From: Eledone cirrhosa
Taxonomy: Eukaryota
Assembly (NCBI GenBank): GCA_964016885.1
Contig: OZ024742.1
Location: forward strand, 150,598,001-150,662,000
Length of the DNA: 64,000 bases
Reading direction: 5' to 3'
Shown here: one piece after another, positions 10,331 to 53,487 of the stretch
How the letters are laid out: each line of letters opens with the position of its first letter
Numbering within the stretch: the first letter of the stretch is position 1
Position numbers and translations under genes: made by a program
The notes under the pieces: generated by a model
Told to the model about the DNA's origin: nothing
What the model saw: the letters and a program-made list of their open reading frames with translations, nothing else
The model's database searches: none

Positions 10331-10342
10331 TATATATATATA

Positions 10343-10506
10343 TAACGGAAGAAATGTGGTAAGGAACCAGGTGGACCATAACGCACCGAAGTACTCAATA
10401 CTTAGGGTAGTAGAGTGGGTAATAGGAACGAGTAGGACCCCGACGGCTGAGCTCAAGAATTAGCCGTCGAAACGGCTCGAGCTCAGCCGTCGGGGTCCTA
10501 CTCGTT

Positions 10507-10510
<4 letters not shown>
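10343..10510 (-). mobile_element. Hairpin-terminated short element in (TA)n, family H
   Basis: taggaacgagtaggaccccgacggctgagctc...gagctcagccgtcggggtcctactcgttccta palindrome plus a tail shared with 17070-17273 and 29903-30090. Confidence 0.7.
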
Positions 10511-10558
<48 letters not shown>

Positions 10559-15949: not shown

Positions 15950-16885
15950 CTGCATGCTTGCGTACATGTGTGTATGTACATGTAAACGAAACTTCATCGT
16001 TTTTCTTTATATATATACTCACTCATCCCACTAACACCTCTACTAATACACACACACACCCTCCTCACTCCAACTTTCACACCTACCCATCCTCGCCCCT
16101 TTACCATTCCACCGACTGCTGCTATGCCCTCTGACCACCTCCCAGCACAAACAGACACACAGCACTCCCACTGCTTGACCACTTCCTGTTGCGCGCGCAC
16201 CCCACATCTCTCCTCTTCCGACCATCTCTTCATGGAATACTCGTATGTGGAACTTGACCACCACGGAATCTACTAAACATCATAGGAATTTACCAACTTT
16301 TCAACCATCCTCTTACGGAATCACCTATATAACTCACCCACACACACACCCAAAAATTTTTTTTCTCCACACGCCACCTACACCCACAACACGCTTAAAC
16401 CCCACACACACGCGCTTTCCACCACATATGTATACCCTCAGCCTCCTGATTCCTCTCCCCCCACCCCTCTATCCACACACGCACAGACACTCTGACCTAC
16501 AACCCCCCCACACACACACACACCTCTTCCTGAACATGCAACCCCGTTCTTCCCCCAACCCTTACTTTCACATACACACACACACACGTACACCTACACA
16601 CACACACCACCTTCAGCCCTCCCCGCTCGGACACCCCGTCTCCCTCTCCCCACTCCACCCGCCACCACCCCTACACACCCCACACCCTTCCACCACCTGT
16701 TTTACCCCTTTTTAATTTCAGTTTATTTTGATCATGCTTTTATATTTAATTTTATTTCATTCCTTGTATTTTGATCATGCTTTATTTTTATTTTTATTTT
16801 TAATTTCATTCGCACCGTTTCCTTTCGCTATATGTCTCTCCACCACTCCCCTACACACCCTTTGAACTCTGTTCCCACACACTTC

Positions 16886-16920
16886 TCACCTGAGGAAGGG
16901 CTTATGCCCGAAACGTCGTT
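16886..16920 (+). ncRNA. Penelope-type minimal hammerhead-like motif, weak stem I
   Basis: CTGAGGA-A GGGC TTAT GCCC-GAA ACGT C; AATAAA about 40 nt downstream, then (TA)n. Stem I has only about 2 bp. Confidence 0.5.
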
Positions 16921-17007
16921 CCCCACCACCACCCCACTCTCCAGAGCGTGAAATTAATAAACATTCGTTGTACTACCTCTCTGTTTTGTTCCTGTTCAAA
17001 TTTTTCC

Positions 17008-17069
<62 letters not shown>

Positions 17070-17073
<4 letters not shown>

Positions 17074-17273
17074 AAAAAGTATCACCCCAACGGCAGAGCT
17101 CAAGCCGTTTCGACGGCCATTTCTGGACTATTTCAGTCCAGAAATAGCCGTCAAAACGGCTTGAACTCTGCCGTCGGGGTCATACTTTTTCCTATTACCC
17201 ACTCTACTACCCTAAGTATTGAGTACTCTGGTTCGTTATGGTCCATCCAGTTCCTTACCACAATTCCTTCGTT
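17070..17273 (+). mobile_element. Family H hairpin element
   Basis: About 60-bp-arm palindrome taggaaaaagtat...ctggact atttc agtccag...atactttttccta plus a unique tail; (TA)n on both sides. Confidence 0.7.
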
Positions 17274-17291
17274 ATATATATATATATATAT

Positions 17292-20200
17292 AAATTGGAA
17301 TAAATGCTCTGAAATAGCGATATATATGTGAATATAGACATAGAATATTCGAAAATATTCTGTATGTTTATAATAAACATTTTGAAGACCTAATCGCTAT
17401 AGAATAGAATACGTCACGTATTACAATTAGATTCTCGACAAAAGCAAGGGAAGTAATCTACGCGTTTCATTCTTGTTAGAAATCATCAGGACTACATATC
17501 CAGTGCTTTTATCGAGAATGACACAGCTAGAGACTTATAGAATACTTAGCTGTGTACAGGAACTGGTTTGAAAGAGCGGTTGCCGGTCCGGCAGAAATTA
17601 GAAATTGGAATAAATGCTCTGAAATAGCGATATATATGTGAATATAGACATAGAATATTCGAAAATATTCTGTATGTTTATAATAAACATTTTGAAGACC
17701 TAATCGCTATAGAATAGAATACGTCACGTATTACAATTAGATTCTCGACAAAAGCAAGGGAAGTAATCTACGCGTTTCATTCTTGTTAGAAATCATCAGG
17801 ACTACATATCCAGTGCTTTTATCGAGAATGACACAGCTAGAGACTTATAGAATACTTAGCTGTGTACAGGAACTGGTTTGAAAGAGCGGTTGCCGGTCCG
17901 GCAGAAATTAGAAATTGGAATAAATGCTCTGAAATAGCGATATATATGTGAATATAGACATAGAATATTCGAAAATATTCTGTATGTTTATAATAAACAT
18001 TTTGAAGACCTAATCGCTATAGAATAGAATACGTCACGTATTACAATTAGATTCTCGACAAAAGCAAGGGAAGTAATCTACGCGTTTCATTCTTGTTAGA
18101 AATCATCAGGACTACATATCCAGTGCTTTTATCGAGAATGACACAGCTAGAGACTTATAGAATACTTAGCTGTGTACAGGAACTGGTTTGAAAGAGCGGT
18201 TGCCGGTCCGGCAGAAATTAGAAATTGGAATAAATGCTCTGAAATAGCGATATATATGTGAATATAGACATAGAATATTCGAAAATATTCTGTATGTTTA
18301 TAATAAACATTTTGAAGACCTAATCGCTATAGAATAGAATACGTCACGTATTACAATTAGATTCTCGACAAAAGCAAGGGAAGTAATCTACGCGTTTCAT
18401 TCTTGTTAGAAATCATCAGGACTACATATCCAGTGCTTTTATCGAGAATGACACAGCTAGAGACTTATAGAATACTTAGCTGTGTACAGGAACTGGTTTG
18501 AAAGAGCGGTTGCCGGTCCGGCAGAAATTAGAAATTGGAATAAATGCTCTGAAATAGCGATATATATGTGAATATAGACATAGAATATTCGAAAATATTC
18601 TGTATGTTTATAATAAACATTTTGAAGACCTAATCGCTATAGAATAGAATACGTCACGTATTACAATTAGATTCTCGACAAAAGCAAGGGAAGTAATCTA
18701 CGCGTTTCATTCTTGTTAGAAATCATCAGGACTACATATCCAGTGCTTTTATCGAGAATGACACAGCTAGAGACTTATAGAATACTTAGCTGTGTACAGG
18801 AACTGGTTTGAAAGAGCGGTTGCCGGTCCGGCAGAAATTAGAAATTGGAATAAATGCTCTGAAATAGCGATATATATGTGAATATAGACATAGAATATTC
18901 GAAAATATTCTGTATGTTTATAATAAACATTTTGAAGACCTAATCGCTATAGAATAGAATACGTCACGTATTACAATTAGATTCTCGACAAAAGCAAGGG
19001 AAGTAATCTACGCGTTTCATTCTTGTTAGAAATCATCAGGACTACATATCCAGTGCTTTTATCGAGAATGACACAGCTAGAGACTTATAGAATACTTAGC
19101 TGTGTACAGGAACTGGTTTGAAAGAGCGGTTGCCGGTCCGGCAGAAATTAGAAATTGGAATAAATGCTCTGAAATAGCGATATATATGTGAATATAGACA
19201 TAGAATATTCGAAAATATTCTGTATGTTTATAATAAACATTTTGAAGACCTAATCGCTATAGAATAGAATACGTCACGTATTACAATTAGATTCTCGACA
19301 AAAGCAAGGGAAGTAATCTACGCGTTTCATTCTTGTTAGAAATCATCAGGACTACATATCCAGTGCTTTTATCGAGAATGACACAGCTAGAGACTTATAG
19401 AATACTTAGCTGTGTACAGGAACTGGTTTGAAAGAGCGGTTGCCGGTCCGGCAGAAATTAGAAATTGGAATAAATGCTCTGAAATAGCGATATATATGTG
19501 AATATAGACATAGAATATTCGAAAATATTCTGTATGTTTATAATAAACATTTTGAAGACCTAATCGCTATAGAATAGAATACGTCACGTATTACAATTAG
19601 ATTCTCGACAAAAGCAAGGGAAGTAATCTACGCGTTTCATTCTTGTTAGAAATCATCAGGACTACATATCCAGTGCTTTTATCGAGAATGACACAGCTAG
19701 AGACTTATAGAATACTTAGCTGTGTACAGGAACTGGTTTGAAAGAGCGGTTGCCGGTCCGGCAGAAATTAGAAATTGGAATAAATGCTCTGAAATAGCGA
19801 TATATATGTGAATATAGACATAGAATATTCGAAAATATTCTGTATGTTTATAATAAACATTTTGAAGACCTAATCGCTATAGAATAGAATACGTCACGTA
19901 TTACAATTAGATTCTCGACAAAAGCAAGGGAAGTAATCTACGCGTTTCATTCTTGTTAGAAATCATCAGGACTACATATCCAGTGCTTTTATCGAGAATG
20001 ACACAGCTAGAGACTTATAGAATACTTAGCTGTGTACAGGAACTGGTTTGAAAGAGCGGTTGCCGGTCCGGCAGAAATTAGAAATTGGAATAAATGCTCT
20101 GAAATAGCGATATATATGTGAATATAGACATAGAATATTCGAAAATATTCTGTATGTTTATAATAAACATTTTGAAGACCTAATCGCTATAGAATAGAAT

Positions 20201-23200
20201 ACGTCACGTATTACAATTAGATTCTCGACAAAAGCAAGGGAAGTAATCTACGCGTTTCATTCTTGTTAGAAATCATCAGGACTACATATCCAGTGCTTTT
20301 ATCGAGAATGACACAGCTAGAGACTTATAGAATACTTAGCTGTGTACAGGAACTGGTTTGAAAGAGCGGTTGCCGGTCCGGCAGAAATTAGAAATTGGAA
20401 TAAATGCTCTGAAATAGCGATATATATGTGAATATAGACATAGAATATTCGAAAATATTCTGTATGTTTATAATAAACATTTTGAAGACCTAATCGCTAT
20501 AGAATAGAATACGTCACGTATTACAATTAGATTCTCGACAAAAGCAAGGGAAGTAATCTACGCGTTTCATTCTTGTTAGAAATCATCAGGACTACATATC
20601 CAGTGCTTTTATCGAGAATGACACAGCTAGAGACTTATAGAATACTTAGCTGTGTACAGGAACTGGTTTGAAAGAGCGGTTGCCGGTCCGGCAGAAATTA
20701 GAAATTGGAATAAATGCTCTGAAATAGCGATATATATGTGAATATAGACATAGAATATTCGAAAATATTCTGTATGTTTATAATAAACATTTTGAAGACC
20801 TAATCGCTATAGAATAGAATACGTCACGTATTACAATTAGATTCTCGACAAAAGCAAGGGAAGTAATCTACGCGTTTCATTCTTGTTAGAAATCATCAGG
20901 ACTACATATCCAGTGCTTTTATCGAGAATGACACAGCTAGAGACTTATAGAATACTTAGCTGTGTACAGGAACTGGTTTGAAAGAGCGGTTGCCGGTCCG
21001 GCAGAAATTAGAAATTGGAATAAATGCTCTGAAATAGCGATATATATGTGAATATAGACATAGAATATTCGAAAATATTCTGTATGTTTATAATAAACAT
21101 TTTGAAGACCTAATCGCTATAGAATAGAATACGTCACGTATTACAATTAGATTCTCGACAAAAGCAAGGGAAGTAATCTACGCGTTTCATTCTTGTTAGA
21201 AATCATCAGGACTACATATCCAGTGCTTTTATCGAGAATGACACAGCTAGAGACTTATAGAATACTTAGCTGTGTACAGGAACTGGTTTGAAAGAGCGGT
21301 TGCCGGTCCGGCAGAAATTAGAAATTGGAATAAATGCTCTGAAATAGCGATATATATGTGAATATAGACATAGAATATTCGAAAATATTCTGTATGTTTA
21401 TAATAAACATTTTGAAGACCTAATCGCTATAGAATAGAATACGTCACGTATTACAATTAGATTCTCGACAAAAGCAAGGGAAGTAATCTACGCGTTTCAT
21501 TCTTGTTAGAAATCATCAGGACTACATATCCAGTGCTTTTATCGAGAATGACACAGCTAGAGACTTATAGAATACTTAGCTGTGTACAGGAACTGGTTTG
21601 AAAGAGCGGTTGCCGGTCCGGCAGAAATTAGAAATTGGAATAAATGCTCTGAAATAGCGATATATATGTGAATATAGACATAGAATATTCGAAAATATTC
21701 TGTATGTTTATAATAAACATTTTGAAGACCTAATCGCTATAGAATAGAATACGTCACGTATTACAATTAGATTCTCGACAAAAGCAAGGGAAGTAATCTA
21801 CGCGTTTCATTCTTGTTAGAAATCATCAGGACTACATATCCAGTGCTTTTATCGAGAATGACACAGCTAGAGACTTATAGAATACTTAGCTGTGTACAGG
21901 AACTGGTTTGAAAGAGCGGTTGCCGGTCCGGCAGAAATTAGAAATTGGAATAAATGCTCTGAAATAGCGATATATATGTGAATATAGACATAGAATATTC
22001 GAAAATATTCTGTATGTTTATAATAAACATTTTGAAGACCTAATCGCTATAGAATAGAATACGTCACGTATTACAATTAGATTCTCGACAAAAGCAAGGG
22101 AAGTAATCTACGCGTTTCATTCTTGTTAGAAATCATCAGGACTACATATCCAGTGCTTTTATCGAGAATGACACAGCTAGAGACTTATAGAATACTTAGC
22201 TGTGTACAGGAACTGGTTTGAAAGAGCGGTTGCCGGTCCGGCAGAAATTAGAAATTGGAATAAATGCTCTGAAATAGCGATATATATGTGAATATAGACA
22301 TAGAATATTCGAAAATATTCTGTATGTTTATAATAAACATTTTGAAGACCTAATCGCTATAGAATAGAATACGTCACGTATTACAATTAGATTCTCGACA
22401 AAAGCAAGGGAAGTAATCTACGCGTTTCATTCTTGTTAGAAATCATCAGGACTACATATCCAGTGCTTTTATCGAGAATGACACAGCTAGAGACTTATAG
22501 AATACTTAGCTGTGTACAGGAACTGGTTTGAAAGAGCGGTTGCCGGTCCGGCAGAAATTAGAAATTGGAATAAATGCTCTGAAATAGCGATATATATGTG
22601 AATATAGACATAGAATATTCGAAAATATTCTGTATGTTTATAATAAACATTTTGAAGACCTAATCGCTATAGAATAGAATACGTCACGTATTACAATTAG
22701 ATTCTCGACAAAAGCAAGGGAAGTAATCTACGCGTTTCATTCTTGTTAGAAATCATCAGGACTACATATCCAGTGCTTTTATCGAGAATGACACAGCTAG
22801 AGACTTATAGAATACTTAGCTGTGTACAGGAACTGGTTTGAAAGAGCGGTTGCCGGTCCGGCAGAAATTAGAAATTGGAATAAATGCTCTGAAATAGCGA
22901 TATATATGTGAATATAGACATAGAATATTCGAAAATATTCTGTATGTTTATAATAAACATTTTGAAGACCTAATCGCTATAGAATAGAATACGTCACGTA
23001 TTACAATTAGATTCTCGACAAAAGCAAGGGAAGTAATCTACGCGTTTCATTCTTGTTAGAAATCATCAGGACTACATATCCAGTGCTTTTATCGAGAATG
23101 ACACAGCTAGAGACTTATAGAATACTTAGCTGTGTACAGGAACTGGTTTGAAAGAGCGGTTGCCGGTCCGGCAGAAATTAGAAATTGGAATAAATGCTCT

Positions 23201-26200
23201 GAAATAGCGATATATATGTGAATATAGACATAGAATATTCGAAAATATTCTGTATGTTTATAATAAACATTTTGAAGACCTAATCGCTATAGAATAGAAT
23301 ACGTCACGTATTACAATTAGATTCTCGACAAAAGCAAGGGAAGTAATCTACGCGTTTCATTCTTGTTAGAAATCATCAGGACTACATATCCAGTGCTTTT
23401 ATCGAGAATGACACAGCTAGAGACTTATAGAATACTTAGCTGTGTACAGGAACTGGTTTGAAAGAGCGGTTGCCGGTCCGGCAGAAATTAGAAATTGGAA
23501 TAAATGCTCTGAAATAGCGATATATATGTGAATATAGACATAGAATATTCGAAAATATTCTGTATGTTTATAATAAACATTTTGAAGACCTAATCGCTAT
23601 AGAATAGAATACGTCACGTATTACAATTAGATTCTCGACAAAAGCAAGGGAAGTAATCTACGCGTTTCATTCTTGTTAGAAATCATCAGGACTACATATC
23701 CAGTGCTTTTATCGAGAATGACACAGCTAGAGACTTATAGAATACTTAGCTGTGTACAGGAACTGGTTTGAAAGAGCGGTTGCCGGTCCGGCAGAAATTA
23801 GAAATTGGAATAAATGCTCTGAAATAGCGATATATATGTGAATATAGACATAGAATATTCGAAAATATTCTGTATGTTTATAATAAACATTTTGAAGACC
23901 TAATCGCTATAGAATAGAATACGTCACGTATTACAATTAGATTCTCGACAAAAGCAAGGGAAGTAATCTACGCGTTTCATTCTTGTTAGAAATCATCAGG
24001 ACTACATATCCAGTGCTTTTATCGAGAATGACACAGCTAGAGACTTATAGAATACTTAGCTGTGTACAGGAACTGGTTTGAAAGAGCGGTTGCCGGTCCG
24101 GCAGAAATTAGAAATTGGAATAAATGCTCTGAAATAGCGATATATATGTGAATATAGACATAGAATATTCGAAAATATTCTGTATGTTTATAATAAACAT
24201 TTTGAAGACCTAATCGCTATAGAATAGAATACGTCACGTATTACAATTAGATTCTCGACAAAAGCAAGGGAAGTAATCTACGCGTTTCATTCTTGTTAGA
24301 AATCATCAGGACTACATATCCAGTGCTTTTATCGAGAATGACACAGCTAGAGACTTATAGAATACTTAGCTGTGTACAGGAACTGGTTTGAAAGAGCGGT
24401 TGCCGGTCCGGCAGAAATTAGAAATTGGAATAAATGCTCTGAAATAGCGATATATATGTGAATATAGACATAGAATATTCGAAAATATTCTGTATGTTTA
24501 TAATAAACATTTTGAAGACCTAATCGCTATAGAATAGAATACGTCACGTATTACAATTAGATTCTCGACAAAAGCAAGGGAAGTAATCTACGCGTTTCAT
24601 TCTTGTTAGAAATCATCAGGACTACATATCCAGTGCTTTTATCGAGAATGACACAGCTAGAGACTTATAGAATACTTAGCTGTGTACAGGAACTGGTTTG
24701 AAAGAGCGGTTGCCGGTCCGGCAGAAATTAGAAATTGGAATAAATGCTCTGAAATAGCGATATATATGTGAATATAGACATAGAATATTCGAAAATATTC
24801 TGTATGTTTATAATAAACATTTTGAAGACCTAATCGCTATAGAATAGAATACGTCACGTATTACAATTAGATTCTCGACAAAAGCAAGGGAAGTAATCTA
24901 CGCGTTTCATTCTTGTTAGAAATCATCAGGACTACATATCCAGTGCTTTTATCGAGAATGACACAGCTAGAGACTTATAGAATACTTAGCTGTGTACAGG
25001 AACTGGTTTGAAAGAGCGGTTGCCGGTCCGGCAGAAATTAGAAATTGGAATAAATGCTCTGAAATAGCGATATATATGTGAATATAGACATAGAATATTC
25101 GAAAATATTCTGTATGTTTATAATAAACATTTTGAAGACCTAATCGCTATAGAATAGAATACGTCACGTATTACAATTAGATTCTCGACAAAAGCAAGGG
25201 AAGTAATCTACGCGTTTCATTCTTGTTAGAAATCATCAGGACTACATATCCAGTGCTTTTATCGAGAATGACACAGCTAGAGACTTATAGAATACTTAGC
25301 TGTGTACAGGAACTGGTTTGAAAGAGCGGTTGCCGGTCCGGCAGAAATTAGAAATTGGAATAAATGCTCTGAAATAGCGATATATATGTGAATATAGACA
25401 TAGAATATTCGAAAATATTCTGTATGTTTATAATAAACATTTTGAAGACCTAATCGCTATAGAATAGAATACGTCACGTATTACAATTAGATTCTCGACA
25501 AAAGCAAGGGAAGTAATCTACGCGTTTCATTCTTGTTAGAAATCATCAGGACTACATATCCAGTGCTTTTATCGAGAATGACACAGCTAGAGACTTATAG
25601 AATACTTAGCTGTGTACAGGAACTGGTTTGAAAGAGCGGTTGCCGGTCCGGCAGAAATTAGAAATTGGAATAAATGCTCTGAAATAGCGATATATATGTG
25701 AATATAGACATAGAATATTCGAAAATATTCTGTATGTTTATAATAAACATTTTGAAGACCTAATCGCTATAGAATAGAATACGTCACGTATTACAATTAG
25801 ATTCTCGACAAAAGCAAGGGAAGTAATCTACGCGTTTCATTCTTGTTAGAAATCATCAGGACTACATATCCAGTGCTTTTATCGAGAATGACACAGCTAG
25901 AGACTTATAGAATACTTAGCTGTGTACAGGAACTGGTTTGAAAGAGCGGTTGCCGGTCCGGCAGAAATTAGAAATTGGAATAAATGCTCTGAAATAGCGA
26001 TATATATGTGAATATAGACATAGAATATTCGAAAATATTCTGTATGTTTATAATAAACATTTTGAAGACCTAATCGCTATAGAATAGAATACGTCACGTA
26101 TTACAATTAGATTCTCGACAAAAGCAAGGGAAGTAATCTACGCGTTTCATTCTTGTTAGAAATCATCAGGACTACATATCCAGTGCTTTTATCGAGAATG

Positions 26201-26775
26201 ACACAGCTAGAGACTTATAGAATACTTAGCTGTGTACAGGAACTGGTTTGAAAGAGCGGTTGCCGGTCCGGCAGAAATTAGAAATTGGAATAAATGCTCT
26301 GAAATAGCGATATATATGTGAATATAGACATAGAATATTCGAAAATATTCTGTATGTTTATAATAAACATTTTGAAGACCTAATCGCTATAGAATAGAAT
26401 ACGTCACGTATTACAATTAGATTCTCGACAAAAGCAAGGGAAGTAATCTACGCGTTTCATTCTTGTTAGAAATCATCAGGACTACATATCCAGTGCTTTT
26501 ATCGAGAATGACACAGCTAGAGACTTATAGAATACTTAGCTGTGTACAGGAACTGGTTTGAAAGAGCGGTTGCCGGTCCGGCAGAAATTAGAAATTGGAA
26601 TAAATGCTCTGAAATAGCGATATATATGTGAATATAGACATAGAATATTCGAAAATATTCTGTATGTTTATAATAAACATTTTGAAGACCTAATCGCTAT
26701 AGAATAGAATACGTCACGTATTACAATTAGATTCTCGACAAAAGCAAGGGAAGTAATCTACGCGTTTCATTCTTG
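17292..26775 (-). repeat. Tandem array of 310-bp units (about 30.6 copies), ribozyme on the minus strand
   Basis: gaaattggaa recurs at 17601, 17911 and every 310 bp; no variant units spotted by eye. Confidence 0.97.
17453..17495 (-). ncRNA. Type I hammerhead ribozyme, first of 30 complete minus-strand copies (every 310 bp)
   Basis: GTAGTC-CTGATGA-T TTCT AACA AGAA T-GAA ACGCGT A-GATTAC. Stem I 6 bp, intact core, palindromic stem III, GUA triplet. Confidence 0.85.
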
Positions 26776-28747
26776 CTTTTGTCGAGAATCTAATTGTAAT
26801 ACGTGACGTATTCTATTCTATAGCGATTAGGTCTTCAAAATGTTTATTATAAACATACAGAATATTTTCGAATATTCTATGTCTATATTCACATATATAT
26901 CGCTATTTCAGAGCATTTATTCCAATTTCTAATTTCTGCCGGACCGGCAACCGCTCTTTCAAACCAGTTCCTGTACACAGCTAAGTATTCTATAAGTCTC
27001 TAGCTGTGTCATTCTCGATAAAAGCACTGGATATGTAGTCCTGATGATTTCTAACAAGAATGAAACGCGTAGATTACTTCCCTTGCTTTTGTCGAGAATC
27101 TAATTGTAATACGTGACGTATTCTATTCTATAGCGATTAGGTCTTCAAAATGTTTATTATAAACATACAGAATATTTTCGAATATTCTATGTCTATATTC
27201 ACATATATATCGCTATTTCAGAGCATTTATTCCAATTTCTAATTTCTGCCGGACCGGCAACCGCTCTTTCAAACCAGTTCCTGTACACAGCTAAGTATTC
27301 TATAAGTCTCTAGCTGTGTCATTCTCGATAAAAGCACTGGATATGTAGTCCTGATGATTTCTAACAAGAATGAAACGCGTAGATTACTTCCCTTGCTTTT
27401 GTCGAGAATCTAATTGTAATACGTGACGTATTCTATTCTATAGCGATTAGGTCTTCAAAATGTTTATTATAAACATACAGAATATTTTCGAATATTCTAT
27501 GTCTATATTCACATATATATCGCTATTTCAGAGCATTTATTCCAATTTCTAATTTCTGCCGGACCGGCAACCGCTCTTTCAAACCAGTTCCTGTACACAG
27601 CTAAGTATTCTATAAGTCTCTAGCTGTGTCATTCTCGATAAAAGCACTGGATATGTAGTCCTGATGATTTCTAACAAGAATGAAACGCGTAGATTACTTC
27701 CCTTGCTTTTGTCGAGAATCTAATTGTAATACGTGACGTATTCTATTCTATAGCGATTAGGTCTTCAAAATGTTTATTATAAACATACAGAATATTTTCG
27801 AATATTCTATGTCTATATTCACATATATATCGCTATTTCAGAGCATTTATTCCAATTTCTAATTTCTGCCGGACCGGCAACCGCTCTTTCAAACCAGTTC
27901 CTGTACACAGCTAAGTATTCTATAAGTCTCTAGCTGTGTCATTCTCGATAAAAGCACTGGATATGTAGTCCTGATGATTTCTAACAAGAATGAAACGCGT
28001 AGATTACTTCCCTTGCTTTTGTCGAGAATCTAATTGTAATACGTGACGTATTCTATTCTATAGCGATTAGGTCTTCAAAATGTTTATTATAAACATACAG
28101 AATATTTTCGAATATTCTATGTCTATATTCACATATATATCGCTATTTCAGAGCATTTATTCCAATTTCTAATTTCTGCCGGACCGGCAACCGCTCTTTC
28201 AAACCAGTTCCTGTACACAGCTAAGTATTCTATAAGTCTCTAGCTGTGTCATTCTCGATAAAAGCACTGGATATGTAGTCCTGATGATTTCTAACAAGAA
28301 TGAAACGCGTAGATTACTTCCCTTGCTTTTGTCGAGAATCTAATTGTAATACGTGACGTATTCTATTCTATAGCGATTAGGTCTTCAAAATGTTTATTAT
28401 AAACATACAGAATATTTTCGAATATTCTATGTCTATATTCACATATATATCGCTATTTCAGAGCATTTATTCCAATTTCTAATTTCTGCCGGACCGGCAA
28501 CCGCTCTTTCAAACCAGTTCCTGTACACAGCTAAGTATTCTATAAGTCTCTAGCTGTGTCATTCTCGATAAAAGCACTGGATATGTAGTCCTGATGATTT
28601 CTAACAAGAATGAAACGCGTAGATTACTTCCCTTGCTTTTGTCGAGAATCTAATTGTAATACGTGACGTATTCTATTCTATAGCGATTAGGTCTTCAAAA
28701 TGTTTATTATAAACATACAGAATATTTTCGAATATTCTATGTCTATA

Positions 28748-28751
<4 letters not shown>
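26772..28751 (+). repeat. Inverted continuation of the 310-bp array (about 6.4 copies)
   Basis: Reverse complement of the unit; ends in (TA)n at 28751. Confidence 0.97.
27035..27077 (+). ncRNA. Type I hammerhead ribozyme, first of 6 plus-strand copies (27035, 27345, 27655, 27965, 28275, 28585)
   Basis: gtagtc ctgatga tttctaacaagaat gaa acgcgt a gattac; predicted cleavage 3' of A27071. Confidence 0.85.
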
Positions 28752-28786
<35 letters not shown>

Positions 28787-29902: not shown

Positions 29903-30090
29903 ATAACGAAGTAGGTGTGGTAAGGAACCAGATGGACCATAATGTAGGGTGGTAGAGTGCGTAATAGCAAAATGTTTAACCCTGACGGCAGAGCTCAAGC
30001 AATTTCGACGGCTATTTCTGGACTGAAATAGTCCAGAAATAGCCGTCGAAACGACTTGAGTTCTGCCGTCGGGGTTAAACATTTTGCTAT
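29903..30090 (-). mobile_element. Family H hairpin element (a partial copy lies at 30721-30780)
   Basis: Homologous to 17070-17273 in reverse orientation. Confidence 0.7.
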
Positions 30091-30690: not shown

Positions 30691-30724
<34 letters not shown>

Positions 30725-30825
30725 AAAAAGTATGACCCCGACGACAGAGCTCAAGCCGTTTCGACGGCTATTTCTTCTGGATATATATATATATTGTACA
30801 GCAAACCATGTTAATCTTCATTCTT

Positions 30826-34599: not shown

Positions 34600-37500
34600 A
34601 ACCATACATTCGCCAATCCTCGATAAGAGTGTTTAAATGTCGAACCTAAACAGTTTGAATAACGGTGAAATGGAGACTAGAATGTCATGTGACAGACTCT
34701 CACCCAACAGGTGCTCCCTGGCTCAGCAGCAGGGACCTGGCTGTCAACCAAATACTGCTGGTGTCGGAGGAAGAAGAGGAAGGAAAGGGACCAGAACCAA
34801 CTGGACGAAAGAATTGAATAGAACTGTTATGCAATGTTACCTGAAGAGTAACCCCAAGGAGAAAGGCTATAGGAAACGGATGCATAACATCTGGAACGAG
34901 ATTGGTCTATTTAAATTAGATGAACAAAAATTGGCCGGGCAGGCTCGGGTAATAAGAACTAATGGGTGGATAAGCGAGCTGGAACTGGAGGAACTGAGCA
35001 GAGAGATTAGCTTGGAGATGGAGAGTGGAGTATGCCAGGCAAACGAGCCAGTGGGAAATGAAGGTGAAGAGGTCGAGAGAACGGAGGAACCACCCGAAGC
35101 AGACAATGATCTGAATGCTGAGATAAATAATACCTGGAACAGAGATACAGCCACTGAGGAGATGAATGCTGACGGGCTAGGACAAGATTTGGTTGATATC
35201 CTAAACTTAGTGGTAGATGAATTGAACAATGATAGTGGGAGACCTATGAACCTAAGATTTGTAGACAGGAAAAAGTTAAAAGAAACAACAGCTAAGGTAA
35301 ACAAAGTCATCCCATACCTTGAGGCGAGGAGCCTTCACCAGTGCAACAATATCCTCAAAGCAACAGCAAATACGGTGAGGAAACTGCTTGGTATAAAAGC
35401 GAGAGGAAACAACAGACATGAAAGACCAGAGCCTTGGTGGAAGAAACGACTGAGTGGTCAAATCAGGGAAATGAGAAATGACATTGGAAAGCTTGAGTCC
35501 CTACTGAATGGGACACTAAAAACAGAGACACTAAAAATAGACTGGAAATAAAGTACAAAACTAGGAGGAAAAAGCTAAATATTATCATAGAGGAACTGAA
35601 GCAACGCATTGTAGCAAAGAGTGCAAAAATCAGGCGATACGAGAACAGAGTCAGTCAGTATAGACAGAACCGCATGTTCGACAACAAGCAGAAGATGCTG
35701 TTTGGACAGCTTGAAGGGAAAGAAAGAGGCAACGACTTGATCCCTGAGGCGGAACAAACTAAAACATTCTGGAGAGGAATATGGGAGCAGGATGTTAAAC
35801 ATAATGACCAGGCAGTGTGGATTGAGACAGTACAGAAGGAGATTAGTGAACAGGCACACCAACAAACTGATTTGAGTATCACAGTTGAAACTCTTAAGGG
35901 GCAGGCCAAAAAATTAACCAACTGGAAATCACCAGGCCCAGATGGTGTGCAGGGTTATTGGATTAAAAATATAACATCCCTCCACCCGAAACTGACAACC
36001 ATGTTCAATGACTGCTTGATGTCAGGTGAGGTACCAGAGTGGTTGACAAAAGGTACCACAGTTCTGATAATGAAAGACCGAATCAAGGGTAATGATGTTA
36101 CCAACTATAGACCTATCACATGTCTGTCCGTAATGTGGAAACTGTTGACAAGCATTATGTCTGAGGAAATCTACCATCACCTCCACACAAACAACTTGTT
36201 ACCGGACGAACAGAAAGGATGCCGAAAGAAGTCACGTGGTACAAAGGACCAGTTACTTATTGATAAGATGGTAATGAGGAATTACAAGAGGAGACACACT
36301 GGTCTTGCCATGGGATGGATAGACTACAAAAAGGCATTTGACATGGTGCCTCATTCTTGGATCACCAAAAGCCTGGAGATCTTCAAGGTGGCAGATAACA
36401 TCAGACAGTTGTTGGGCAAAAGTATGAAGTCCTGGGAAACAGAGTTAACATCAACTGGAGAATCCTTGGGAAGCGTGAAGATAAAGAGAGGTATCTTCCA
36501 GGGAGATAGTCTGTCCCCTCTGTTGTTTGTCCTTGCCCTGATGTCCCTGACCAGTGTACTGCGAAAAGTGAGAGCAGGATACGGGTTGGGAAAGGGAGGG
36601 CTTACCATCAATCACCTCCTCTTCATGGACGATCTTAAGCTCTTCGGGAAGAGTGAGAAGGAGTTGGATGTGCTTGTTGACACTGTCCGTATTTTCAGCA
36701 ATAATATATGTATGCAATTTGGTATTAGTAAGTGTGGAGTCATTGTAATGAAGAGGGGTAAGTTGAGCAGAAGTAACGGAATCCAGGTACCTACAGGTGA
36801 GATGATAAAGGAAATTGACTCTGAAGAAGGATACAAGTATTTGGGTGTTCTGGAGGCTGATGACATCAAGAACAAAAAAAATGAAGGAATTGATAAGAAC
36901 TAAATACATTCGGAGAGTAAGGAGCGTATTAAAGTCACATCTGAACAGTAGGAATGCCATAAGTGCAGTAAATTCCCGAGCTGTGTCTATTATTAGGTAC
37001 AGTGCAGGAATTCTGAGATGGAATGTTGCTGAACAAAAAGAAATGGATAGGAAGACTAGGAAGCTATTGACTATCTACAACATGTTCCACAAGAGGAGTG
37101 ATGTCGATAGACTCTACTTAAGGAGATCTGAAGGTGGAAGAGGTCTTATCAGCATAGAGGACTGTGTTCAGATGGAGAAAAACAACCTACACAAATACGT
37201 GACTGATAGTAAGGAGCCAATGCTCAGAACTGTACTGAAGGATGGGACAATAGGCCAGGGGATGTCCAAGGAGGAAATAACATCAAGGAGAAAGAGCAGC
37301 CTTCAGGAAAAATCCCTTCATAGTACCTTCTTTGAGAAAACTGAATTTAGAGATCCACAGACATGGAACTGGTTAAAAAGAGGAGACCTTAAAAAGGCTA
37401 CAGAAGGAATGTTAATGGCTGCGCAGGAGCAGGCGCTCAAAACGAAGTGGTTGAAACACCATATTTACAAGGAGGAGGCTAGCCCACTGTGCAGGATCTG

Positions 37501-38135
37501 TGGTGAGAGAGAGGAGACTGTGGCTCACATTGTATCCGAGTGTAAACACCTAGCCCAGACTCACTATAAGGGCTGGAGGCATGATGTAATGGGCAGGGTG
37601 ATCCACTGGCACCTATGCAAAGTAAACAATTTACCACATTCTGAGAAGTGGTATGAGCATAAGCCAGAGTCGGTGATAAAAACGATCAGGTGAAGGTGCT
37701 GTGGGATTTTAGGATACAGACGGACAAGAAACTGGAACACAATAGACCTGACCTGGTGGTTGTAGACAAAGAAAAAAGTTCGTGCCTGATTGTGGATGTG
37801 GCCTGCCCATTCGAAACGGGAGTGCAAGAGAAGGAGAGGGAGAAAATTAACCGATACCAGGACTTAAAGTGGGAGGTAAAAAGGATTTGGAACTGCCATG
37901 AAGTCAAAGTGATCCCGATTGTCATAGGCGCCCTAGGGACTATCTCAAAAAGTTTCCAGGGATGGTTAAAGAAAATTGGCCCCTTCACGCTTTTTGGAAC
38001 GCTTCAAAAGGCATGCTTGCTGGGAACAGCAAGAACCCTCCGATACGTCCTGAATATCTGAGGCTGCAGGTAGTGGCTTGATATTCATTTCAACAAACTT
38101 TCCAGTTAACTAACATCAATGACTGAGACTCAAAG
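34600..38135 (+). mobile_element. Near full-length R4/Dong-clade non-LTR retrotransposon (family 1), single ORF broken by three frameshifts
   Basis: N-terminal RTNWTKELNRTVMQCY; RT motifs KSPGPDG, YRPITCL, IDYKKAFD, GIFQGDSLSP, FMDDLK, YKYLG; CRIC..ETVAHIVSEC; RHD; NRPDLV and KINRYQDL RLE; (TAA)n tail at 38136-38160. Confidence 0.93.
34637..38061 (+). pseudogene. RT-RLE polyprotein pseudogene of the R4/Dong element
   Basis: Consecutive ORFs 34637-35551, 35674-36903, 36815-37693 and 37690-38061 in different frames. Confidence 0.88.
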
Positions 38136-50025: not shown

Positions 50026-50049
50026 GTGCCTTTTCTCTTCACCACCAAC

Positions 50050-53000
50050 ATGGCTATGCTAAGAGTAGGCTGTTTAAATGCGCGTGGCCTGGGCTCAACT
50101 TGGAAGCAAGCAATGCTTCTAAATGACCTCAGGTCACAACGTATAGATGTGATGGTTATTTGCGAGGCCCGGATCAGCAACGTGCGACAGCTGGCCCCCA
50201 CCTTTGATGACTTTGAGATGCACGCATCTCTCTGTCAGCCCGGAGGTGGGGGTGGAGTTGTCGTTCTGCTGCAAAAACATCTGGGTCTCGCAACACAGAT
50301 GGTACATTTGGACCCGGAGGGTCGACTAGTGGTTCTGGACCTTGGCAGTGGTAAAGGCGGAGCGTTTAGGTTGGTAGCCGCCTACGGCCCTTTCGGCTCA
50401 ATGCGGCCGGACTTCTTCCATCGTCTGGAGACTTTTCTAGGGACGTCCCGCTCCTTGCTATTAGTGGGGGACTGGAATGGTATCCTAGATGCACGCTGGG
50501 ACTACGTAGGGGCCTGCCCCGATAGAGAGGGGTGTAATAGCCTCAAAGGGTTAATCGGTCGATTTGACCTGGCCGATAGATATCGACTAGATTTTCCGAC
50601 TGCGCCAACCTGGACTTGGGCAAATCGTAGCGGATCATCTAGGTCGTACCTAGATAGGTTCTTAGTTAGAATTAAGGATAAGGACTTTTTAAGTTGTCCA
50701 AAAATGCGCATTGTTGGCTATTCAGACCACAAATTAGTGACCTGCATGGTCAACCTTGACAGAACTCATAGACAGGGCCCCGGTTACTGGAAGCTCAACT
50801 TGTCCTTGCCGGCAAGTAGAGCCTACAGGAATCGGATTAGTACGTTAGTTAAGGAACGGTTGACTGGAGCGATCGTCAACAGCAGGTGGTGGGTATCTCT
50901 AAAGAGAGAGATTAGAGTAGTCTCGATAGAATTTAGTAAGGTTCTAGCTGCGAATAGGAATAGGAAGGAAAGGGAGCTAATAGATAGAGTAGAAGAGGCA
51001 ATTAGAAGCGGCGACGTGGCCAGAGTGCTAGCGTCGAGAACGGCTTTGAGCCAGTTTTTCGACGCGAAGCACGAAGGCTGCGTTGTCCGAAGTAAAATAC
51101 GTGCTCTAGGGAACGAGGGGACCAAAGCTGTTAGCTGGGCCCGCGTGACAGAGGCCAACAGTGGAACTAAATCCACCATCCGGTCTTTGCGAGACCTGGA
51201 TGGACGGGCGATTCTTGAGCCTAAGCAGATGTGTGAGGCCTTTCAAAGGCACTTTGCTCGACTGTTCGGGAGGGGCGGGGAGCCGGTTGGGAACGTGGAC
51301 TTCGGTCCATACCTCGACGGCCTGCCGCGCCTCTCGGACAGGGAGGCGAAGTCCTGCGAGGAGCCGATTTCGGCCGCTGAGATAGAGGACGTGCTGAGCC
51401 AATGCGGCAAACGCAAATCCCCGGGTCTCGATGGTCTTCCTTACGAATTATATCTAGCTATGCCGGACTTGTTCCCCGATCTCCTCGAGGCGGTCTACTG
51501 CAACTGGCAACAGAACGGGAGAATTCCCTGTATTGTGACCAAGGGCGTAGTCACGCTAGTGAGGAAGGACGAGAACAAGGGGGACGAAATAAGTAACTTC
51601 AGGCCCATAACACTGCTAAATACAGAGTTACAGATTTTGGCCAAGGTGCTAGCAAAGAGGTTGGCGCTTGTCGTGGGCAACCTGGTGGGAGATGCGCAGA
51701 CATGCGCTATCCCGTCCAGGTCCATCCATGACAACCTCCACCTCATGCGATACATCATAGAGAGGGTTGGGAACGAACCCGGCTTTGGTGGGGCTCTGAT
51801 CAACTTGGATCAATCTAAGGCGTTCGATAGGGTCGACCATGGTTACCTGGATGCGGTGCTAGCGGCGGCAGGCTTCGGACCCGTTTTCAGGGGCTGGATC
51901 ACTGCTATGCACAGCAGCCGCATCTGCTCTAGGGTCAAGGTGAACGGCTACCTCTCGGAGCCGTTCAAAATCGCGCGGTCCATCCGACAAGGGTGCCCTC
52001 TCTCCTCCCTTCTGTATGTGTTGACTCTCGAGCCACTACTGCGGAAGTTGGAGTTGTTGCAGGGCATCCCTTTGGAACCGGGATTGCGGAAAGCGGTGTC
52101 GGCCTACGCCGATGACGTGACAGTAATGGTGTCGACGGCCTCCGAAATCGAGGCGGTCGGCACCTTACTGGAGGAGTACGAAAAGTTCACAGGGGCTAAG
52201 CTGAACCGGGACAAGTCGATCGGTTTGCAACTCGGCACGTGGAGGGGCAGACCGATGCCCTCCGATAGCGTCGTCGGACGCTGGACGGAGGGCCCGGTGA
52301 AGTTGCTCGGGGTCTGGTTCGGACCGGACCTCCAGGTGGAGAAAAACTGGGCGGAGGTTACGAACAGGGTGTTTGCACTGACCCAGAAGTGGGCCAGTTG
52401 CAAACTATCCCTGAAAGGTCGGGCGGAGGTGGCGAACACCTACATAGCGTCCGTCATCTACTACCGCCTGACCGTAGTGCCCTGCCCAAGGGAAACCCTC
52501 ACCAAGATGGAGCGCGCGCTCTTCCAATTCCTTTGGAAGAGGCGGGCTCCTATGGTGAGGAGATCCATCTGCTGTCAACACCCTTCGAAAGGAGGGCTGG
52601 GGATGCCGTGGCTAATGATGCGTAAACACGCATTAAGGCTACGGCACCTCTACGTATTCCTCACCGGACAACCGGTGTGGGCCTCGTTTGTGAGACGAAC
52701 CTTTCCCAGACTCGTCTCACTCACCGAGCTGCAATCCTGGGTCAAGCAAAGACCGAGAAAACTGGGCGCCTGGCACACTGAGTGTGCCCAGGCGCTCACC
52801 GCCCTCTGGCAGGCGGATCCGGTTATCAGTGGAGACTCCACCGCAACATTCTATAGAGGGCTGGTACGCAGCAGGTGCGACGACGCCCTCGGAGAAGCCC
52901 TAGACATGGAGGAGGACGAACTGGCCAGCCTGTTCGGTAGGACATTCAGCCCGGGACCTATGGACAACTTCCAGAAGTCCCTGGCCTGGCAGTGCTACCG

Positions 53001-53487
53001 AGGGGCTTTACCCGTTCGAGAAAGGCTCTACAGACACGGGCGCCCGGGTAGGGACCCCGCCAAAAAGATCTGTCCCAGATGCGTGTGCGACGAGGAAACC
53101 GTTGCACACGCATTAGTACACTGCTCGGGCGTAGCCGATCTGTGGGGCTATGTCGAACAACTGCTGTCAAGGGTGGGACCGATCCGGTTGACCACCGAGT
53201 CTATTGTAATGATCAAGCCGCCTCCCCCCTTCAAAGATGAAGCAGAGGCGGTGTTTCTGTGCGTAATAGCCATGGCGAAAGAGGTTGTATGGTGGACGCG
53301 TCTGAAAGGACTGAGGTCGGGCACCTTTCTCTCTGGCCAACAACTGGTCCGTTTCTTCCGATATCATTTCGGAAGAAGGATCAGGATGGAGAGAGAGGTG
53401 CTGCACCCCAGCCGTTTCTATGAAAGATGGGTGAAAGTGGCGAGAATGGCCCGTGTGAATGGGCCTTCACTCTACATCAGACTATAG
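50050..53487 (+). CDS. LINE ORF2: AP endonuclease, reverse transcriptase and C-terminal zinc motif (about 1145 aa, intact)
   Basis: CLNARGL, GDWN, SYLDRF, SDHK, YWKLN, KSPGLDG, FRPITLLN, DQSKAFDRV, RQGCPLS, AYADD, CPRC..ETVAHALVHC; ATG at 50050. Confidence 0.93.
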   Translation: MAMLRVGCLNARGLGSTWKQAMLLNDLRSQRIDVMVICEARISNVRQLAPTFDDFEMHASLCQPGGGGGVVVLLQKHLGLATQMVHLDPEGRLVVLDLGSGKGGAFRLVAAYGPFGSMRPDFFHRLETFLGTSRSLLLVGDWNGILDARWDYVGACPDREGCNSLKGLIGRFDLADRYRLDFPTAPTWTWANRSGSSRSYLDRFLVRIKDKDFLSCPKMRIVGYSDHKLVTCMVNLDRTHRQGPGYWKLNLSLPASRAYRNRISTLVKERLTGAIVNSRWWVSLKREIRVVSIEFSKVLAANRNRKERELIDRVEEAIRSGDVARVLASRTALSQFFDAKHEGCVVRSKIRALGNEGTKAVSWARVTEANSGTKSTIRSLRDLDGRAILEPKQMCEAFQRHFARLFGRGGEPVGNVDFGPYLDGLPRLSDREAKSCEEPISAAEIEDVLSQCGKRKSPGLDGLPYELYLAMPDLFPDLLEAVYCNWQQNGRIPCIVTKGVVTLVRKDENKGDEISNFRPITLLNTELQILAKVLAKRLALVVGNLVGDAQTCAIPSRSIHDNLHLMRYIIERVGNEPGFGGALINLDQSKAFDRVDHGYLDAVLAAAGFGPVFRGWITAMHSSRICSRVKVNGYLSEPFKIARSIRQGCPLSSLLYVLTLEPLLRKLELLQGIPLEPGLRKAVSAYADDVTVMVSTASEIEAVGTLLEEYEKFTGAKLNRDKSIGLQLGTWRGRPMPSDSVVGRWTEGPVKLLGVWFGPDLQVEKNWAEVTNRVFALTQKWASCKLSLKGRAEVANTYIASVIYYRLTVVPCPRETLTKMERALFQFLWKRRAPMVRRSICCQHPSKGGLGMPWLMMRKHALRLRHLYVFLTGQPVWASFVRRTFPRLVSLTELQSWVKQRPRKLGAWHTECAQALTALWQADPVISGDSTATFYRGLVRSRCDDALGEALDMEEDELASLFGRTFSPGPMDNFQKSLAWQCYRGALPVRERLYRHGRPGRDPAKKICPRCVCDEETVAHALVHCSGVADLWGYVEQLLSRVGPIRLTTESIVMIKPPPPFKDEAEAVFLCVIAMAKEVVWWTRLKGLRSGTFLSGQQLVRFFRYHFGRRIRMEREVLHPSRFYERWVKVARMARVNGPSLYIRL

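Follow-up and report, generated by a model that had tools for sequence, protein, structure and literature searches.

Paired priming on a single RNA as the probable origin of a head-to-head hammerhead repeat array in Eledone cirrhosa

We describe an 11.46-kb insertion of a 310-bp tandem repeat carrying a hammerhead ribozyme (HHR) motif, located in a 64,000-nucleotide stretch of Eledone cirrhosa DNA (positions 150,598,001 to 150,662,000 of contig OZ024742.1; assembly GCA_964016885.1, 3.0 Gb), referred to hereafter as the window. Comparison with related loci of the same genome leads us to a reading to which we assign a probability of roughly 70%: that this is a young, non-coding 310-nt hammerhead insertion made by a Penelope-type reverse transcriptase (RT)-endonuclease, which primed both strands of its target on one RNA, probably a circle. 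Counts across the family give good support to paired priming on one RNA; the circle, the laps made around it, the enzyme, and the editing of its template are what we infer.

The repeat forms two perfect tandem blocks, at 17292-26775 and 26772-28751, the second of which is the reverse complement of the first, and neither arm contains a single variant relative to the unit. Numbering unit positions from the base after the predicted ribozyme cut, the left block (B arm) comprises 30.6 identical copies, has the ribozyme sense on the minus strand, and runs from unit position 167 at its outer end to 294 at its inner end. The right block (A arm) comprises 6.4 identical copies with the ribozyme sense on the plus strand and ends at unit position 130. 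A (TA)n run at 17273-17291 abuts the left outer end, and a (TA)17 run at 28752-28785 is joined to the right outer end at the point where the unit itself continues CATATATAT. The perfect inverted arm spans exactly 1,980 bp, with 24769-26748 paired to 26772-28751. Between them lies the inversion junction (26745-26775), in which CAAG (26745-26748) and CTTG (26772-26775) flank an unpaired 23-nt spacer containing the complement of the predicted cleavage site; this 4-nt microhomology is common to both arms. The coordinates of the palindrome and its junction, the reverse-complement continuation, and the AT-rich reading of the unit at the right (TA)n join had been given by an initial annotation of the window and are confirmed here, and its view that the plus strand of the left block is the cDNA sense is supported. 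The palindrome of about 4 kb that it described is real, yet makes up only the paired part of the larger insertion, and the CTTG that it took for the complement of stem II is in fact complementary to the last two bases of loop II and the first two bases of the stem II 3' strand.

A hammerhead motif, as the initial annotation had recognized, recurs every 310 nt in both arms (for example, at 27035-27077 on the plus strand). It is of a minimal type I form, consisting of stem I (GTAGTC/GATTAC), CTGATGA, stem II, GAAA, and a short stem III, with a predicted cut following GUA, after 27071. Rfam returned no match within the window at its gathering threshold, and the HH9 alignment to the motif is weak (18.3 bits, E 0.1, under the gathering score), so the call depends on the core bases, all of which are present by eye. 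Among sampled elements, the 14 core positions carry a fixed change in only one, from GUA to GUU. Five elements (L047, L073, L075, L078, and L098) have a fixed one-base insertion 2-4 nt past the predicted cut and ligation site. No open reading frame (ORF) of at least 150 aa was found over the array, which thus lacks the RT and GIY-YIG ORF of an autonomous Penelope-like element (PLE). What it shares with retrozymes are tandem non-coding units, within the size range of roughly 150-1000 nt, dispersed at many loci, each with a type I hammerhead motif.

The family survey drew on 140 further genomic stretches, of which 40 were retrieved through their resemblance to the unit, 74 by a pattern for the A end with its (TA)n run (the first listed matches on one contig, C1), and 26 by a pattern for the B end, chosen without an A-end match nearby. 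Genome-wide, there are 1,205 matches to the A-end pattern, a part of them inside arrays, and 785 forward-strand matches to the B-end pattern. From these numbers we estimate a family of more than 1,000 insertions, of which our sample covers about a tenth; variants called private below are private within that sample. Including the window, 143 elements were delineated, and 129 were complete after 14 had been dropped at a fetch edge, contig end, or N.

Head-to-head arrangement proved to be the rule. It was found in 119 of the 129 complete elements, always with the ribozyme strand pointing outward; the remainder were nine single arms and one 23-bp fragment. In 117 of these 119, one outer end falls in a class that we call site A (unit 124-140, mostly 130 or 139), which is AU-rich and matches (TA)n, and the other in site B (unit 150-173, mostly 165-172). 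There were no A/A or B/B elements, and the two exceptions were a complex locus (L039) and one ending at 118 and 165 (L121). The rule held regardless of how the loci had been chosen: 30/31 for those picked by unit similarity, 65/65 for those picked by the A end, and 22/23 for those picked by the B end. Both arms exceed one unit in 98/117. The most common pair of ends, 130 and 165, leaves a 30-40-nt tail at one end only; one of the copies of this region in the window, from site A (unit 127-139) through site B (unit 160-172), is at 27198-27243 on the plus strand and corresponds to the tail of about 35 nt that each insertion has at one end only.

Of 82 complete A/B elements, 80 are bordered on either side, within 20 nt, by a run of (TA)3 or (AT)3 or longer. 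When a non-TA letter was required in the flank-only sequence on both sides, 11/117 elements (11/31 of those with impure TA flanks) had an informative target duplication, mostly of 12 bp, against a mean of 0.8 and a maximum of 4 in shuffled pairings. The insertions thus show an inverted copy, a tail at one end, and a TA-rich target with a short duplication, the features by which PLE insertions are recognized. The window locus has this footprint in full and is genuinely a young retrozyme insertion.

That both arms derive from one template is indicated by their sequence variants. The majority haplotype is the same in the two arms of 81 of 83 elements (37 haplotypes), compared with a mean of 8.0 and a maximum of 17 after shuffling. 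In addition, 20 variants were seen in one sampled element only and were fixed in all its copies (up to 20/20), and 120 elements carried 46 haplotypes. Shared haplotypes together with array-fixed private variants mean that each array descends from a single monomer sequence, for which a circle is the simplest explanation. No regular every-second-lap pattern of the kind expected of dimer circles was seen.

Put together, these results suggest the following sequence of events. Transcripts of the repeat would self-cleave and ligate to a monomer circle, as has been shown in other animals (PMC7229834). A staggered cut within (TA)n would leave the observed duplication of about 12 bp. Site A, which is AU-rich and can pair with (TA)n over as many as 10 nt, would then be primed by one target end (at the window, the right (TA)17 run). 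The other target end, here the left (TA)n run, would prime at site B, which lies about 35 nt downstream and can pair over 1-2 nt. The element ends at these positions are observed, whereas the priming is our interpretation of them. Both polymerases would run several laps, each displacing the product of the other (30.6 and 6.4 laps at the window), and stop at unrelated points, after which host repair would join the cDNA 3' ends by microhomology or a short templated insertion. We presume the joining enzyme to be polymerase theta. Priming at a (TA)n run, many laps, and a microhomology joint were already part of the initial annotation; its proposal that the right end formed as a late microhomology join is not supported.

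The spectrum of variants bears on which strand served as template. Read on the ribozyme strand, A>G accounts for 12/37 array-fixed variants but 12/141 single-copy variants (p = 5e-4), in a sample whose first 40 loci over-represent the allele that the window itself has at position 20. Pairs that include an A>G site also fail the four-gamete test more often (23/80 versus 5/55 for others, p = 0.009), reflecting recurrence across lineages. A-to-I editing of the template would give such a bias, as would tolerance of G-U pairs, given that 7 of the 12 A>G sites lie in predicted stems. The neighbor preference of ADAR is weak at these sites (5' U in 7/12, versus 36/92 for all A). Either cause would make the ribozyme strand the working RNA and so speaks against a template of antisense polarity.

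The genome offers candidates for the enzyme. It contains 10,595 GIY-YIG candidates, and in some ORFs an RT is followed by a C-terminal GIY-YIG domain. Two coding copies, L158 and L166, are head-to-head with TA-rich flanks and a tail at one end; a third, L152, seems to stop at an identical position on either side. A second non-coding hammerhead family (L142:2437-2880 and L169:8990-9116), with about 78% identity to unit positions 59-154, stops at the matching tail position before (TA)n, and L142 is also head-to-head. The region common to the two families may, judging from this similarity, be a recognition element for the enzyme.

Several observations weigh against paired priming on a circle by a PLE enzyme. 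In a search of 32 of the 10,595 GIY-YIG candidate loci by blastn and with a three-sequence profile, the A/B region had no match to coding PLE ends; the only match in those loci was the second non-coding hammerhead family. An earlier and looser duplication test was positive in 36/117 elements versus 24% in the control, not clearly higher. Two coding copies of the RT plus GIY-YIG type (L158:3260-6525 and L159:1558-5155) form near-perfect palindromes whose loops measure a mere 8 and 26 nt or so, and fold-back may thus occur for some linear PLE templates; alternatively, two polymerases may have stopped at one RNA end. In vitro, insertion by a PLE protein did not need HHR cleavage (PMC11167929). 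In each of three elements (L070, L081, and L122; 6/88 rare variants), a lap-specific change in one arm recurs in the other, equally far from the primed end, for which a monomer circle does not account; in L081 the haplotype changes in both arms after two laps. Mosaics of another kind are L058, whose arms begin on different haplotypes, the B arm starting on one and ending on that of the A arm, and L031, which lies on a contig of 13.8 kb and in which each arm changes haplotype close to the junction.

Templates with mirrored lap-specific variants cannot have been uniform from lap to lap, implying linear multimers or joint template switches in a few percent of cases. Copying of linear templates is thus indicated by these three elements as a secondary route. 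Extended to the family, this becomes a proposal that A and B priming was paired on a long, linear, uncleaved multimer transcript of an existing array, the copies then not being laps of a circle. Unprocessed RNA was indeed the main in vitro substrate of the PLE protein (PMC11167929), stem III of the unit is very short, and eight of nine Xenopus dimers are reported to remain uncleaved in vitro (10.64898/2026.07.22.740005). We nonetheless consider it unlikely as the general route. The other 82 of the 88 rare variants in the shared zone are unmirrored, whereas variants inherited from a multimer would be mirrored, and the 20 private array-wide variants and 46 haplotypes require a monomer bottleneck. 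Junction ends show no pile-up at the cut site, and the 30.6-copy arm, the longest measured among complete elements, would need a uniform source of at least that length.

Far less probable is the mechanism put forward in the initial annotation: a single priming event at the left (TA)n run, about 30 laps, a 4-nt fold-back within the ribozyme, copy-back, and a microhomology join on the right. Self-priming on an antisense template has been proposed for head-to-head PLE palindromes (PMC3846280), and the short loops of coding copies L158 and L159 fit it. At the window the loop is short, the longer arm carries it, and 4 nt match, so that this junction by itself is geometrically compatible with fold-back; being variant-free, it cannot discriminate. 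The 4-bp CAAG/CTTG hairpin is absent from the predicted DNA fold. The annotation proposed a survey of other arrays for inversion points near the HHR, and across 127 junctions these show slight avoidance rather than clustering: the hammerhead holds 22/254 junction ends versus 35.2 expected, and 14 lie near the cut site versus 20.5 expected. The spread of junction ends over the unit is compatible with uniformity (p = 0.09), as is the offset between arm ends (Kolmogorov-Smirnov p = 0.34). A short loop (at most 40 nt) was on the longer arm, as fold-back needs, in only 12/34 cases. The A arm is longer in 54/117 elements and the B arm otherwise (medians 1,040 and 1,478 nt); because either can be the longer, neither is regularly a copy of the other. 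Rare variants within the zone that a fold-back would copy were mirrored in 1/34 cases, and in that one (L122) each arm outreaches the other, so neither can be a copy, although this test is weak alone because many rare variants may postdate insertion. Nor is there any cause for copy-back to end at site B, where 1-2 nt match (TA)n. An apparent excess of short loops among the first 19 junctions was gone with 117, and a pile-up of junctions at unit position 21, due to a reference with the minority allele at position 20, disappeared once element-specific alleles were used.

Junction sequences have instead the character of repair joints. Microhomology averages 2.42 nt over 100 of the 127, compared with 0.74 by chance, which makes the 4-nt overlap at the window ordinary. 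Insertions occurred at 27/127, and of the 12 that are at least 8 nt long, nine share 9-13 nt with the unit. At one locus (L053:1449-1720) an unrelated 272-bp sequence is captured within the inversion junction. Fold-back as the mechanism for the whole family is already refuted by the survey that was to judge it. The window junction, which by sequence alone would still allow fold-back, reads as an ordinary repair joint that fell within the ribozyme by chance.

We see only a slim chance that a short insertion was later expanded as a satellite by unequal crossover, with the inversion arising from a DNA replication or repair event. Local tandem amplification has been suggested for retrozymes (10.64898/2026.07.22.740005), and some variants recur in neighboring or spaced copies of one arm (L016, L053, and L015), but expansion fails to account for the A/B ends in 117/119, duplications of about 12 bp, single polarity, and 11.46 kb of variant-free sequence. 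An assembly or fold-back read artefact is least probable of all: a perfect 9.5-kb array can be mis-sized, and short contigs of four sequencing runs, probably from another individual or relative and uninformative either way, did not bridge the window junction. Yet the 127 distinct junctions differ in their flanks, are accompanied by target duplications, and obey one rule for their ends, and the outer flanks of the two window arms also differ in sequence, which is not what a fold-back chimeric read would give.

Other features of the window surround the array. Directly to its left, between (TA)n runs, is an abundant element of about 200 bp (17072-17275) composed of an imperfect hairpin of about 60 bp and an unpaired tail; further copies lie near 10342-10511, 29903-30090, and 30720-30775, as well as at many other loci, and 54 nt of this family are found inside the inversion junction of L085. 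At approximately 16885-16925, a minimal hammerhead-like motif is situated in a C-rich stretch that ends at the (TA)n run at 17010-17071 and looks like the end of another PLE-type element. Long interspersed nuclear element (LINE)-type ORFs occupy 50026-53487 and 34637-37693, comprising a 1,153-aa open frame, in which an apurinic/apyrimidinic (AP)-type endonuclease is combined with RT and zinc-binding domains, and an RT copy broken by a frameshift. Among the RT ORFs of the window, we found the AP-type endonuclease in one and a GIY-YIG match in none.

Two standing questions meet in this family: how PLEs make inverted copies and one-sided tails, and whether PLE proteins reverse-transcribe the RNA circles of animal retrozymes, as has been proposed since 2020 (PMC7229834). 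A young family of more than 1,000 insertions provides countable in vivo footprints that favor one answer to both. Because the template, two start sites, and target can be named, the existing in vitro PLE assay could test paired priming on a circle directly. Copying of ribozyme circles from both sides of a DNA cut would, if true, explain the spread of such repeats. We also offer, at somewhat short of even odds, a bolder version in which PLE integration is paired priming by design, with a two-subunit enzyme that begins a cDNA on each target strand, using two fixed RNA sites. On a circle the two polymerases would chase each other by strand displacement for up to 30 laps, producing a kilobase-long palindromic satellite in one step, and each array would record one RNA, including heritable A-to-I edits. 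Paired priming on a circle, if true, would also create long perfect palindromes and satellites in a single step and might carry the products of RNA editing into genomic DNA.

In their basic composition, the arrays resemble the non-LTR (long terminal repeat) retrozymes of metazoans, which are non-coding tandem units of a few hundred nt with one type I hammerhead each and for which PLE copying of circular RNA has been proposed (PMC7229834; 10.64898/2026.07.22.740005). The former study (Cervera and de la Pena 2020) showed the circles and proposed that mobilization by PLEs yields tandem cDNA; the latter (Li, Clavereau and Pollet 2026) uses distribution and phylogeny to connect retrozymes with the terminal repeats of PLEs, and favors local amplification. 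Unlike metazoan retrozymes as described in the available text of these sources, nearly every insertion here pairs two multi-copy arms head to head, with ends fixed as a pair and with duplication of the target. The word "inverted" does not appear in the main text of the first and appears once in the second, and the text covered in either contains no insertion-site evidence for the route. Among literature titles and abstract openings, we likewise found no inverted retrozyme arrays with paired ends or fixed editing, although older PLE papers may anticipate part of this.

GIY-YIG PLEs provide a closer match in the form of the insertion. They too have an inverted 5'-truncated copy, a 30-40-nt tail at one end, (TA)n or AT-rich targets, and two adjacent internal RT starts, with reported duplications of 8-10 bp, versus about 12 bp here. 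Craig et al. 2021 (10.1101/2021.04.23.441226) described the inverted copy, the one-sided tail, and the (TA)n bias, and called the cycle undefined, whereas self-priming on an antisense template was the proposal of the Arkhipova lab in 2013 (PMC3846280). Frangieh et al. 2024 (PMC11167929) reported that a purified PLE protein, for which a dimer is predicted, cuts the two target strands and extends each of them in vitro, and that it starts reverse transcription at two adjacent internal RNA sites bounding the tail, no difference in start site being seen from one strand to the other. The present repeat differs in lacking an ORF and in that both arms are long arrays of one short unit. Moreover, our data tie each start site to one target strand on one RNA molecule, which the PLE papers, in their available text, do not; there the tail is ascribed to endonuclease resolution or alternative starts, and the inversion to self-priming or left undecided.

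Twin priming of L1, defined together with dual priming by Meyer et al. 2010 (PMC2837659), is a further parallel: two target ends are extended on one RNA, and an inverted insertion results between duplications, often with microhomology at the inner joint. In L1, as presented in that source, twin priming is a variant outcome, its second site is upstream and internal, and the two arms represent different parts of the RNA. Here, in contrast, paired priming is the rule (119/129), a constant 35 nt separates the two sites, and each arm covers the whole unit many times over. Dual priming in the L1 style on two RNAs is excluded for 81/83 elements.

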